From NCBI GenBank assembly GCA_965242725.1, contig CBDESZ010000027.1, forward strand, positions 59,922 to 123,921: a DNA stretch of 64,000 nt, read 5' to 3'. The number at the start of each line of letters is the position of its first letter. Position 1 is the first letter of the stretch. Origin of the DNA: Alkalispirochaeta sp. (GTDB taxonomy: Bacteria > Spirochaetota > Spirochaetia > DSM-27196 > Alkalispirochaetaceae). Made by a program: the position numbers and the translations under genes. Positions 44,342 to 48,706 of this stretch are shown here, piece after piece. The notes under the pieces are model-generated. The model ran no database searches. It saw only the letters and a list, made by a program, of their open reading frames with translations, and was not told the DNA's origin.

Positions 44342-45247
44342 CTACGTCACGTCCAACCGCTCGAGAAGGAGCGCAAGCTCCCGACGTTCCTCACCTTCAA
44401 TACTCGTAAGGGGCAGGGGCAATGACGGGGATGCGGCGAAACCCACCACCTCAGCGGCCGTGGCAATGACTCTCAGGCTGCCGCCGTATCGTTGAAAGAG
44501 CGTCCACAGCGGCCCGAGCCGCCGGGACAGGCGCATCGCTTCCTCACCCTCTCCCATGCGTACGGACCGGGCAATTGCGAGGGCCGTCCGAGGAAAGAGC
44601 CCGCCGATGACTGAATACCACAGATCACACCCGGCGATGAGTCCCGTCGCGGCGAAGGAATCACCGCTGATTCCAATTGTCACATCCGGGGGCAGCATCT
44701 TCCGGAGCGTCGCAACGCGCGCCCGCGCCGTCTCCATTTCGGGAGAAATGCCGGGAATCTTTATTGAATAGACCATAGGTAGTTCGGCAATCCTGCGGTA
44801 CAGCTCATCGCTGAAGGTGAACTTTGTTGTTCCCGGATTGTCGTAGAGACAGAGCGGCACCGAGAGCGAGGCGGATACGGTGCGGTAGAGATGGAACACC
44901 TCATCCTCCGTCAACGAATGGTAGGAGACGGGGGCGAGCAGAACTGCCGACGCGCCGGCGTTCTGGGCGTCTTCCGCGAGGAGACAGACGTCCCGAGTCC
45001 GCAACGCGCCGATGCCGACCATCACAGGAGTGGAACCTGCAGCATCCACGGCACGGCGCGCCACCGCGGCGCGTTCCCGCCGATTCAAGTAGGGGTACAC
45101 GCCGGTGGATCCCAGAACACCGAGGGAGTCAACCCCGGCGGAAACCGCACGCCCGACGATCCGGACGACGGCCTCCTCGTCGGGTTCTCCGTCCTTCAGG
45201 GGCGTCAGGGGGAAGGCGCAGAGGCCGGAAAAGGGGAAATCACTCAC
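44342..45247 (-). CDS. Dihydrodipicolinate synthase (DapA/NanA) family protein
   Basis: FPLTP, LGSTG, LYDNP, SIKIP. Confidence 0.85.
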   Translation of the reverse strand: MSDFPFSGLCAFPLTPLKDGEPDEEAVVRIVGRAVSAGVDSLGVLGSTGVYPYLNRRERAAVARRAVDAAGSTPVMVGIGALRTRDVCLLAEDAQNAGASAVLLAPVSYHSLTEDEVFHLYRTVSASLSVPLCLYDNPGTTKFTFSDELYRRIAELPMVYSIKIPGISPEMETARARVATLRKMLPPDVTIGISGDSFAATGLIAGCDLWYSVIGGLFPRTALAIARSVRMGEGEEAMRLSRRLGPLWTLFQRYGGSLRVIATAAEVVGFAASPSLPLPLTSIEGEERRELALLLERLDVT

Positions 45248-45876: not shown

Positions 45877-46896
45877 CTATACCGTTACCGGCAGGAGCAG
45901 CTCCGCTATTTGAACGGCGTTGAGGGCGGCACCCTTCCGCAGCTGGTCACCGGTGAGCCAAATGTCGTATCGATACTCGCTGCCGTGGTCACGACGTATG
46001 CGACCGACAAGTACGTCGTCGTTGTTTGCGGCGGAAACGGGTGTCGGCCCGAGTCCCCGGGCATCCCACCCGTTGTTGCCGTATACCGCGACTCCCGGGG
46101 CCTCTCCAAGCAGTCGGTACAACTCCTCTACCGGGGGTGATGATTCCAGCTCGATGTTGACGACCTCCGCATGGGAGCGCATGACCGGCACCCTTACGGC
46201 GTGGACGTTTACGGCGAGGTCCGGTTCATCCAGTATCTTGCGGAGCTCATTTATTATTTTCCATTCTTCTGAAACGTAACCGTTTTCCATGAGTTCCGTA
46301 TTGTGGACAAAACAGTTGAATGCGTACTGGTAGGGAATCACCGAATTTGTGTACCGACGCCCCTGCAGCACCGCTTCCGTCTCTTCCTGAAGCTCCGTCA
46401 TCGCACGGCTTCCCGCGCCGCTGGCAGCCTGATAGGTGGCGATGAAGAGTCGCTTGATCGTGTAGGCCCGATGGAGCGGACCGAGAACGGTGGCGAGTAT
46501 TGCGGCGTTGCAGTTCGGGTTGGCAATGACGTTTGAATGACGAGCAAGGGAATGGGAATTGACCTCCGGAACGACCAGAGGCACTTCCCGCTCCAGTCGA
46601 AACTGGGAGGAGTTGTCTATAAGTATCGCACCGGAGTCTGCGACTTCCCTGGCGATCTGGGCGGTCACAAAACTTCCCGCAGAGGCGAGGACGAAATGGA
46701 CGTCCCGAAAAACACCCTCGTGGAGAGGTATGACATCGAGCTCCCGTCCCTTAAAGGGTATCGTCGCGCCCCGGCTCCGTTCAGATGCGATGGGAATGAG
46801 CTGCTCCACGGGAAAATCACGCTCTTCCAGAATGGAAATGATCTCCCGCCCTACTGCGCCGGTTGCTCCGACGACTGCTACACGATAACCCGGCAT
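45877..46896 (-). CDS. asd: Aspartate-semialdehyde dehydrogenase
   Basis: VAVVGATGAVG, IDNSS, ANPNC, TYQAASGAG, RVPVMRSH, DQLRKGAALNAVQI. Confidence 0.96.
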   Translation of the reverse strand: MPGYRVAVVGATGAVGREIISILEERDFPVEQLIPIASERSRGATIPFKGRELDVIPLHEGVFRDVHFVLASAGSFVTAQIAREVADSGAILIDNSSQFRLEREVPLVVPEVNSHSLARHSNVIANPNCNAAILATVLGPLHRAYTIKRLFIATYQAASGAGSRAMTELQEETEAVLQGRRYTNSVIPYQYAFNCFVHNTELMENGYVSEEWKIINELRKILDEPDLAVNVHAVRVPVMRSHAEVVNIELESSPPVEELYRLLGEAPGVAVYGNNGWDARGLGPTPVSAANNDDVLVGRIRRDHGSEYRYDIWLTGDQLRKGAALNAVQIAELLLPVTV

Positions 46897-46963
46897 GTAA
46901 TACCTCCTCCGTCTGCCCCCTCCGGAGATCATTGCCGACGGCAACACAATCCGGCGTTAGGGC

Positions 46964-46991
46964 AAAAAAAAACCCCGCATCTGCGGGGTTT
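46964..46991 (-). terminator. Attenuator-type intrinsic terminator in the asd leader
   Basis: AAACCCCGC-AGAT-GCGGGG followed by T9, 67 nt upstream of the asd start. Confidence 0.88.
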
Positions 46992-47014
46992 CAAAATCAT
47001 AGTCAGGTGGACAG

Positions 47015-47149
47015 CTAAAAAACGGCCGTCCCGCACTGCTCACCGGCCGTAGTATCCCCTGTGGTCTTTTTCGTCGTCGTGATGGTTTTCTTGCCGATTG
47101 TGGGCGTTGACGAGGTGAACAGGATATAAGGCGTTCGTACAGCGAACAT
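47015..47149 (-). CDS. Putative asd leader peptide (44 aa)
   Basis: MFAVRTPYILFTSSTPTIGKKTITTTKKTTGDTTAGEQCGTAVF-stop; 13 Thr, 4 Lys, 3 Ile; ends 23 nt before the terminator. Confidence 0.8.
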   Translation of the reverse strand: MFAVRTPYILFTSSTPTIGKKTITTTKKTTGDTTAGEQCGTAVF

Positions 47150-47230
47150 TACACACATGGTCATCAATTTGTTCCCGTTCCGTCAAGTGGTACAGGACAT
47201 ATTCCTGATTTTTTTTGGCTCCGGAAGGGA

Positions 47231-48577
47231 TTATTCATTCATTACCGCCTCGACGGGGTGTGATGCCGAAGGCGAAACCCCTCCTGATTCCCTCGAGAAG
47301 TACATGACCAGCGGCGGTACCGGCGGGGATGTTACAAAAGGTGACTTCCGGTCAAACTCCGGCAACCAGACGAGTCGGATCCCGTCGTCCTGAAGATCGA
47401 CGAGAAATGCCGGTCCCTCCGGCGAGGGAAGATTGATGCCGCCGTCATAGCCTGTTGCCGTACCCGGCGCGGGAATGGGGGCGTAGAGAATCCGCCGGTG
47501 CTCCAATCCCGAGCCGATCCCGAGGGGTCTCAAGATGTTGCCGCCCTGCCAGGAGAGTGTTCCGCCGTCGTGAATCGTCAGTTCACCGTAGGTGTTGCTT
47601 CTGTACAGACCGGCATACCCTTCAAGGGCACTCGCAAAGTCCTTGCGTCTTTCATATATCCCCTGGAGCTCCCTCCAGGAGTAGCCTTCGACGGGGATGA
47701 AGTCGCCCCGTATGGAGACATCGTCCGTTTCAATAGTGAGTTCCACCGTTTCGGCGTCGCGTATCGTCAGTTCCACACCTTTATCAGGAAAAACCACCCG
47801 CGGATAGGATACGGCCGCCTCTTCAAGGGGAAGCTGCAGGGAAGTTTCGCCGGTCAATATGGTCAGTATCCCACCGGACAACCGAAACACTTCCAGGACG
47901 GCGGCGCCCCTTTCTACCGCCTCCGCCGCAGCCGTGCCCCACCAGATGTTTCCACCGACGACCGAATGAATGTCCTCAATGGCATCCGTCGAGATTTGGG
48001 CGATCGTACCGGTGCCGTCTCCCGTCGGTAAGGTGATTGACGGTGGAAGGCCCTGCAACAAGGGGGAAAAGACGAATCCTCTGTACGCCCCGTCCGCTAC
48101 AACCTCTAACCATACGCCCCTGCGTCCGCCTACTGTCGTTTCCGGTGTCGCAACGGATACGAGAGTGACCTCTTCGTGGAGACGCAACCGATACAGAACA
48201 TCCGAGGAGGTTGTCGGGCCGGTACGTACCCGCAGCGCGTTTACCGACGCCTGCGCCGTGCGGCCCAGGATGCCCTCCGATTCCCGGACAAACTCTTCCG
48301 CCGCTGCGCGGGTGTCAAAGAGGCGAATGACGCCTGCCGGTACGGCGTGACTTCCGGATTCCCCGTTGGTGACGACGGGGTATGTCCGTTCCCTCTGGTT
48401 CACGGCTCCTACGGAAACGACCGTCCCCGCCTGGAGGGACATTTGGGGAATATCGGAGACGACCACTGCGGGCTGCAGTTCTTCCACGGAACACGCGGTA
48501 ATCGCCAGAATCAGGGCAATCGATACCGACCGTAAAACCGTCGCCGTGCCGCCCCGGACCTGGCCGTACCATTTCAT
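47231..48577 (-). CDS. SH3-domain-containing exported protein
   Basis: Signal/lipobox-like ITAC; ALRVRTGPTTSS...WLEV...GFVFS bacterial SH3 pattern; start uncertain. Confidence 0.75.
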   Translation of the reverse strand: MKWYGQVRGGTATVLRSVSIALILAITACSVEELQPAVVVSDIPQMSLQAGTVVSVGAVNQRERTYPVVTNGESGSHAVPAGVIRLFDTRAAAEEFVRESEGILGRTAQASVNALRVRTGPTTSSDVLYRLRLHEEVTLVSVATPETTVGGRRGVWLEVVADGAYRGFVFSPLLQGLPPSITLPTGDGTGTIAQISTDAIEDIHSVVGGNIWWGTAAAEAVERGAAVLEVFRLSGGILTILTGETSLQLPLEEAAVSYPRVVFPDKGVELTIRDAETVELTIETDDVSIRGDFIPVEGYSWRELQGIYERRKDFASALEGYAGLYRSNTYGELTIHDGGTLSWQGGNILRPLGIGSGLEHRRILYAPIPAPGTATGYDGGINLPSPEGPAFLVDLQDDGIRLVWLPEFDRKSPFVTSPPVPPLVMYFSRESGGVSPSASHPVEAVMNE

Positions 48578-48706
48578 CTGCCGACACGTCTTCTCCCCTC
48601 GTCTGTTCACCCTGTGATACCTCCCCACAGGCGGAGGCTCTCACATGAAGATTGCCGACACGTTACCGATTCGTTACAAATCGGTAATGAAGTGGTAAGG
48701 TGACAT

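Follow-up and report, generated by a model that had tools for sequence, protein, structure and literature searches.

Upstream of asd, the gene for aspartate-semialdehyde dehydrogenase (Asd), the 64,000-nt stretch of an Alkalispirochaeta sp. genome analyzed here (contig CBDESZ010000027.1 of assembly GCA_965242725.1; "the window") contains a small open reading frame (ORF) rich in Thr and Lys codons and followed by a terminator. Is this a leader peptide that attenuates asd transcription, which amino acids would it sense, and how could a ribosome stalled on its control codons act on the terminator? A first account made from the letters alone (hereafter the sequence-only reading) had proposed a leaderless, thrL-like attenuator that integrates Thr, Lys, and Ile.

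Layout of the asd Leader

The putatively regulated gene matched the asd_B model TIGR01296 at 352.9 bits (cut-off 324.2), with ATG 46896 as its likely start. Twenty of 29 Asd protein matches were at least 71% identical to the window's Asd, and the nearest named proteins came from Alkalispirochaeta sp. and Spirochaeta sp.; the genome also carries three FlaA-family genes. Positions of all leader features are collected in Table 1. The codon content that the sequence-only reading gave for the 44-codon ORF (13 Thr, 4 Lys, and 3 Ile) was reproduced, as were the putative promoter (an 18-nt spacer between the two boxes and 7 nt from the second box to the ATG), the T9 run at 46972-46964, two further in-frame ATGs at 47158 and 47164, and the protector arms ACGGCCG (47050-47044) and CGGCCGT (47028-47022). 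Two more proposed pairings, TGCGGG (47035-47030) with CCCGCA (46987-46982) and GGACGGC (47031-47025) with GCTGTCC (47015-47009), are both present, but they have two G's in common and therefore cannot coexist at full length.

Within the genome the Thr/Lys core stands alone: among 8,687,434 six-frame windows of 11 codons, it is the only one with at least 10 Thr or Lys codons. In a genome-wide scan for small ORFs with a terminator before a gene, the asd leader ranked first of 24 rows, followed by a Trp leader before trpE. No Pfam or NCBIfam family matched the leader peptide.

Several features point to a leaderless ORF. There is no Shine-Dalgarno-like motif within 20 nt of the leader ATG in any of the seven orthologous leaders described below, and in all seven the promoter spacing would place +1 at the AUG, although the −10 boxes are weak; the promoter scanner returned no site at its consensus threshold, the leader promoter having 8 of 12 matches. 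The leader ORF is thus likely leaderless, with transcription from the AUG or the adjoining base.

The gene upstream of the leader (47231-48628, minus strand) encodes a 465-aa protein with a weak match to the bacterial SH3_3 domain (26.7 bits, cut-off 27) and with no NCBIfam family; it is unrelated to the leader. Two genes below asd lies a DapA-like aldolase family gene (44342-45247, minus strand) that scored far under the dapA cut-off, and this synteny is not kept in the orthologous loci.

Table 1. Features of the asd leader region, with positions counted in the window.
Feature	Position	Strand	Remarks
Putative −35 box TTGACG	47181..47186	−	TTGAC 36-39 nt before leader ATG in 7/7 orthologs
Putative weak −10 box GACCAT	47157..47162	−	Read from sequence; below promoter-scanner threshold
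Leader ORF, 44 codons, likely leaderless	47015..47149	−	In-frame ORF of 34-48 codons in 7/7 orthologs
Segment 0, first 10 nt including AUG, predicted 5′ arm of helix P0	47140..47149	−	
Second 9-nt partner for segment 1b, window-specific	47114..47122	−	Pairs in folding model with ribosome on K28
Thr/Lys control-codon core, codons 20-30	47060..47092	−	7 Thr and 4 Lys through T30; 1 Ile inside
Segment 1, protector 5′ side	47036..47061	−	Outer 47061-47054, inner 47050-47044
Segment 1b, P0 partner, within segment 1	47045-47036	−	
Segment 2, common to protector 3′ arm and antiterminator 5′ arm	47022..47035	−	GCGGG invariant in 7/7
Segment 3′ of stop codon	47004..47015	−	Antiterminator inner arm 47015-47009 or outer protector arm 47012-47004
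Intrinsic terminator, stem 46991-46982 / 46979-46970, U9 tract	46964..46991	−	CCCCGC..GCGGGG invariant in 7/7
Shine-Dalgarno of asd, GGAGGAGG	46903..46910	−	GGAGG or AGGAG before asd in 7/7
asd, aspartate-semialdehyde dehydrogenase (asd_B), putatively regulated gene	45877..46896	−	TIGR01296 and PRK14874 over cut-off

Conservation of the Leader Across asd Orthologs

Of 98 other genomes of the order, five, all from the same family, carry an asd of the window's clade (71-78% identity), as does 1 of 80 kept metagenome loci. All six of these relatives have the leader, giving 7/7 loci with the window; the leader alignment and all counts out of seven refer to these related loci (the window and six close asd orthologs). 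Each locus shows TTGAC, an ATG-started ORF, a Thr/Lys core, a protector, an antiterminator with the invariant GCGGG, a stop codon, and a CCCCGC..GCGGGG terminator with U-tract, this intrinsic terminator lying between the ORF and asd in every case. The ORFs are 44, 37, 48, 39, 36, 34, and 38 codons long, all different, yet the ATG stays in frame with the core. The conservation of a Thr/Lys-rich small ORF upstream of asd in relatives, as the sequence-only reading had anticipated, was therefore borne out in 7/7.

The terminator could simply be that of the gene upstream, with asd transcribed from its own promoter further down, and indeed no other terminator-like site was found on the minus strand between the upstream stop codon and the leader. 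However, the flanking genes differ at all seven loci, one upstream gene being divergent, and the distance from the U-tract to the asd start is variable (31-103 nt, with 31 nt in L111). Differing neighbors together with a short gap to asd indicate that the leader moves together with asd and does not represent the terminator of a neighbor, and we consider a plain terminator the least probable of the explanations weighed here. The conserved element before asd is real. The contig of one run matches the window exactly over 46700-47400, but as it may be where this DNA came from, it does not count as independent support.

More distant asd genes gave a different picture. A 400-genome sample of the phylum contained 10 further asd genes, all at most 49% identical, and a contig search (80 kept loci, from which near relatives may have been left out) yielded no asd closer than 47%. 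Among other asd types, a Thr/Lys leader was found at 0 of 32 usable loci (of 34) and at 0 of 15 further family loci, negatives that are not fully sensitive, given that such a screen missed the real leader of L111 on account of an earlier start codon. A covariance model of the leader RNA (R1), run on 99 genomes with 32 candidates scored per genome, retrieved no leader beyond its six training loci and one thrS leader; three other matches proved to be a tRNA-like gene with a terminator or plain 3′ terminators.

Several asd types occur in the family (L310-L331), and the leader is confined to the window's clade. Many members of the genus have another asd type, followed directly by an aspartokinase-like gene, and another genus has a third type. 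The window's genome itself contains two more asd_B paralogs, ∼41% identical to that of the window (L210 and L211; G000:C5 and C25), one of which follows a diaminobutyrate-aminotransferase-like gene near the only aspartokinase found in the genome. Neither paralog's context was flagged in the genome-wide leader scan.

Control Codons and the Amino Acids Probably Sensed

The seven leaders comprise 276 codons, including 64 Thr, 24 Lys, 4 Ile, and 3 internal Met, an enrichment for codons of pathway end products (Thr and Lys) of the kind expected upstream of an attenuated gene. The main Thr codon is ACG (40/64), and Lys is encoded by both AAA (14) and AAG (10). In the core alignment an A is invariant at each third base, which corresponds to the first codon positions, whereas the order of Thr and Lys varies between orthologs and the Lys codons shift position. 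On this comparative evidence the asd leader is very probably an amino-acid attenuator, and the earlier proposal of a leaderless leader-peptide attenuator that includes Lys codons holds up as likely, with the conserved ORF, the promoter spacing, the lack of a Shine-Dalgarno sequence, and the terminator all found in 7/7.

The same codons could also have been conserved incidentally in an untranslated structured leader or small RNA that binds a protein or a metabolite, and downstream of the core nucleotide conservation does exceed peptide conservation. Such an element would not explain why the frame is kept over seven lengths or why the codons match the pathway end products, and no Rfam family scored over threshold; we give this explanation very little credence.

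Whether Lys is sensed is a separate matter, since Thr codons outnumber Lys codons 64 to 24. In a Thr-only attenuator the Lys codons would be an A-rich spacer with no sensing role, and in folds of the naked RNA part of the A-rich core does pair with a pyrimidine tract that lies upstream. Against this stand the three or four Lys codons in every ortholog, at changing positions and in both synonymous forms, which also bear out the inclusion of Lys in the original proposal. In addition, a Thr-only leader in the same order, preceding a second thrS, has no Lys, so that Thr codons do not of themselves bring Lys codons along, and unrelated asd leaders elsewhere combine Thr and Lys as well. We therefore regard the Thr-only alternative as unlikely; the codon patterns suggest that Lys is probably sensed together with Thr. 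The genome has hom, thrC, and dapB, as well as a lysA-like gene just under cut-off, and Lys is thus likely made through Asd. No Lys riboswitch (RF00168) or T-box (RF00230) was detected at the locus or elsewhere in the genome (91.8% complete). Reading Thr and Lys together, a single leader would monitor the end products of both branches at the Asd branch point.

The third input of the sequence-only reading, Ile, fared less well, as did Met, which was to enter through the upstream ATGs. The window's copy does have three Ile codons, one of them in the core, and 12 of the 22 family genomes, that of the window among them, have sub-cut-off threonine dehydratase matches (ilvA_1Cterm was over cut-off in 1/22). 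Yet the Ile counts per leader are 3, 0, 1, 0, 0, 0, and 0, leaving none in 5/7 leaders and 4 in 276 codons, and no Met is conserved. The upstream ATGs are specific to the window, with none within eight codons upstream in the other six leaders; one overlaps the putative −10 box and the other lies just 5′ of it. A Thr/Lys/Ile (plus Met) sensor is therefore very unlikely in our estimation. Citramalate synthase permits Ile synthesis without Thr. This enzyme passed its cut-off in 19 of the 22 family genomes, among them five of the six that bear the leader, and with such a Thr-independent route Ile need not be an end product of Asd here; the missing Ile codons fit this route.

Predicted RNA Structures and the 5′-End Helix

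In the seven-sequence alignment, protector and terminator are together 87.8% paired, a level that 0 of 500 shuffles attained, and the inner protector helix is 96% paired, both sides having changed in two of its pairs. The antiterminator, mutually exclusive with the terminator, is 88.6% paired and mostly invariant. The stability of the whole leader fold was no better than that of shuffles (z = −1.05) and is uninformative.

A further pairing emerged at the 5′ end. The first ∼10-11 nt of the predicted transcript, AUG included, find their best partner within the leader in segment 1b in 7/7. The resulting helix, which we call P0, reaches 85.7% pairing, including two pairs in which both sides have changed, and beats AUG-plus-shuffle controls (≤12/1000) in six of the seven leaders, the exception being L004 (532/1000 shuffles as good; antiterminator probability 0.02). 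Cognate assignments of 5′ ends to segments 1 beat all but 101 of 5040 permutations; a longer 5′ segment clearly beats shuffles in only 4/7. Both P0 and the antiterminator were derived from the same seven related sequences. This conserved 5′-end pairing, as predicted from the alignment, is something that the sequence-only reading missed. Covariation of protector plus terminator was matched by 5/500 shuffles, but that of the antiterminator (148/500) and of P0 (78/500) did not rise above shuffles.

Antiterminator probabilities were computed over four ribosome footprint sizes with an equilibrium folding model, which includes neither kinetics nor a penalty for enclosing a ribosome within a helix; given that it produced no off state at the stop codon in seven of eight Trp leaders, the model is not a validated predictor. 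For the asd leaders it behaved as an attenuator should when the ribosome was placed at the stop codon (antiterminator probability 0.00 in 7/7), and with the ribosome at codon 5 the protector formed at 0.82-1.0 in 7/7. Two classical features failed. Between the last control codon and the protector inner stem 12-18 nt remain, and a ribosome stalled on the control codons did not cover the protector 5′ arm in the model, except in part in L006; the positions from which a ribosome would act sterically lie ∼3-8 codons downstream of the core, on non-conserved residues, in 5/7. Moreover, an untranslated leader in a classical attenuator terminates by default, but the naked RNA favored the antiterminator in 6/7 (0.50-1.0) because its 5′ end pairs with segment 1. 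Of the thrL-like scheme first proposed, the codons, stems, and terminator thus stood, whereas its simple steric logic fits poorly.

What governed the modeled outcome over the core was the 5′ end. When it was free and only the footprint was blocked, the antiterminator probability was 0.45-1.0 in 6/7; when it was blocked, with 9-14 nt covered beyond the first A-site base, the probability fell to at most 0.04 in 6/7. Counting any pairing of the terminator arm, this contrast holds in only 5/7. A ribosome in mid-core allowed the 5′ helix to displace the protector in 5/7 when segment 2 emerged. A second ribosome queued on nt 1-16 would undo most of the effect, lowering predicted read-through to at most 0.26 in 6/7. 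The new element is a prediction: in 6/7 models the control codons are too far upstream to break the protector sterically, and in 6/7 a freed 5′ end restores antitermination.

A Proposed Switch Through P0

We think it about an even chance (probability roughly 0.5) that the asd leader is a leaderless, ribosome-dependent Thr/Lys attenuator that switches through P0, which is the best explanation we can offer. Granted that the leader is an attenuator, we put the odds that P0 is needed for the switch slightly above even. In this mechanism transcription would begin at or beside the AUG, on which a ribosome would load without a Shine-Dalgarno sequence, and the sensed signal would be charged tRNA-Thr and tRNA-Lys. 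Early in translation, with the ribosome no further than the first codons, segment 2 would be held by the protector (1:2). With Thr and Lys plentiful, the ribosome would reach the UAG and cover segment 2, allowing the terminator to form. With either scarce, it would stall at about codons 16-30, past the 5′ end but short of segment 1; the freed 5′ end could then pair with segment 1/1b past the stalled ribosome to form P0, opening the protector and also hiding the AUG from a second ribosome. Segment 2 would thereupon capture the 5′ arm of the terminator, and RNA polymerase would read into asd. A leader that is not translated would be read through by default.

The same Thr/Lys attenuator might instead work classically, with the stalled ribosome, pausing kinetics, or unwinding of the outer protector freeing segment 2, and with P0 as an accessory that would prevent re-initiation on RNA already released, or would determine the basal level of read-through once the stop codon is vacated. 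The outer protector stem begins directly after the core, as would suit such a switch, and in L006 the last core codons already act sterically (0.9), as they do partly in L005. Placing the ribosome at the stop codon likewise leaves P0 predicted to form (0.57-1.0 in 6/7), and the covariation of P0 is not significant. On the other side are the collapse of core antitermination upon blocking of the 5′ end in the model and the downstream, non-conserved position of the steric window described above; we see the classical version as possible, but do not favor it.

Returning to the switch through P0, a broader formulation, which we advance tentatively and at rather less than even confidence, is that the stalled ribosome would be looped out instead of blocking a stem. 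A leaderless 5′ end, with its start codon, would pair across the ribosome with the protector, resulting in a long window in which either Thr or Lys starvation could act, with re-initiation off and an untranslated default of ON, within a set of leaderless attenuators (asd, trpE, and thrS) in a spirochaete order from which our literature search retrieved no described example. If the 5′-end helix is needed, covering of a stem by a stalled ribosome would not be the sole route to antitermination, and leaders with seemingly misplaced control codons would merit re-examination.

Comparison With Known Leaders

The thrL leader of E. coli combines a short ORF carrying Thr control codons with alternative stems, and its intrinsic terminator precedes a gene of the aspartate pathway; each of these features has a counterpart in the asd leader. 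The two differ in their second input (Lys in the asd leader, Ile in thrL) and in their target (asd vs. thrABC), and the asd leader uses mainly ACG, is likely leaderless, and has a longer ORF, control codons upstream of the steric window, and predicted read-through without translation. In Rfam, the best match was to Leu_leader, at 28.8 and 31 bits against a threshold of 50 and driven by the terminator, and there was no match to Thr_leader. With two classical features failing in the model and no Rfam family, we do not file the asd leader as a member of the thrL type. A leader peptide attenuator of the lysine cluster in Thermus thermophilus reportedly responds to Lys only, in the alpha-aminoadipate pathway; like the asd leader as we read it, it is said to register Lys through leader codons and not through a riboswitch.

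Published candidates come closer in one respect or another. The thr attenuator is listed among ribosome-mediated attenuators, with eight ACC codons, in PMC1183508. The small ORF SEP5 of Sinorhizobium meliloti is translated, contains six Thr and three Lys codons, and has been put forward as a leader peptide (PMC10117765). It lies in the 5′ UTR of what that paper names an "aspartate dehydrogenase-encoding gene," which may be asd. SEP5 thus shares the Thr and Lys codons of the asd leader; it is alphaproteobacterial and, in the accessible portions of its description, is given without a mechanism, terminator, or starvation test. Deide_15739 of Deinococcus deserti, a "putative asd leader peptide," is leaderless, with a start site mapped at the ATG (PMC4007540). 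Like the leader described here it precedes asd and is of the leaderless type, but it has 10 residues with two Thr, one Ile, and no Lys, and its function is described there as putative.

The trpL attenuator of S. meliloti is leaderless as well, and it shares with the asd leader and with the Trp leaders of the order an ORF that starts at or near the 5′ end of the transcript. In the Trp leaders, however, the Trp codons lie near the stop codon, and the modeled outcome of a stall was independent of the 5′ end in seven of the eight tested.

Our literature search, whose coverage mostly excludes subscription papers, found no asd attenuator in a spirochaete and no such 5′-end helix, and the available portions of PMC1262725, PMC4833913, PMC3556520, and PMC12612679 contain no asd or Lys precedent. 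The idea nevertheless has more precedent than the sequence-only reading supposed: candidate asd and Thr/Lys leader peptides have been published for other phyla. The asd leader would extend leader-peptide attenuation to free-living spirochaetes.

Related Leaders in the Order and Elsewhere

Trp-rich leader ORFs with terminators precede trpE at 26 of 28 usable loci of the order (L273-L302), 23 of them with a −35-like motif at leaderless spacing; of 77 genomes with a match, the survey covered the 30 that scored best. The window's genome has one such Trp-rich ORF with a terminator before trpE (L208; G000:C30:39892, minus strand). At G000:C30:56338 (L209, minus strand), within an oligopeptide-ABC-type cluster, an ORF of 21 codons shows TTGAC spacing together with a GC terminator but has no clear control codons.

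The Thr-only leader comes from another family (L197:1484-1631; G027:C245). It is of the leaderless type, has five tandem Thr codons, and carries the same CCCCGC..GCGGGG terminator; the second thrS that it precedes is short and ∼38% identical to the usual copy. Among 27 usable thrS loci, one had such a leader together with promoter and terminator.

Small ORFs ending in Thr/Lys runs also occur ∼95-112 nt upstream of asd at L035 and L045 (Devosiaceae, Alphaproteobacteria) and at L119. These loci have GC-rich hairpins but no visible U-tract terminator, and RNA model R1 gave no match at the leader. Judging by their codons and position, they are likely functional relatives of S. meliloti SEP5. The occurrence of Thr/Lys leaders before asd in unrelated alphaproteobacteria suggests repeated invention, and their distribution is likely wider than the "only in Sinorhizobium" of PMC10117765.
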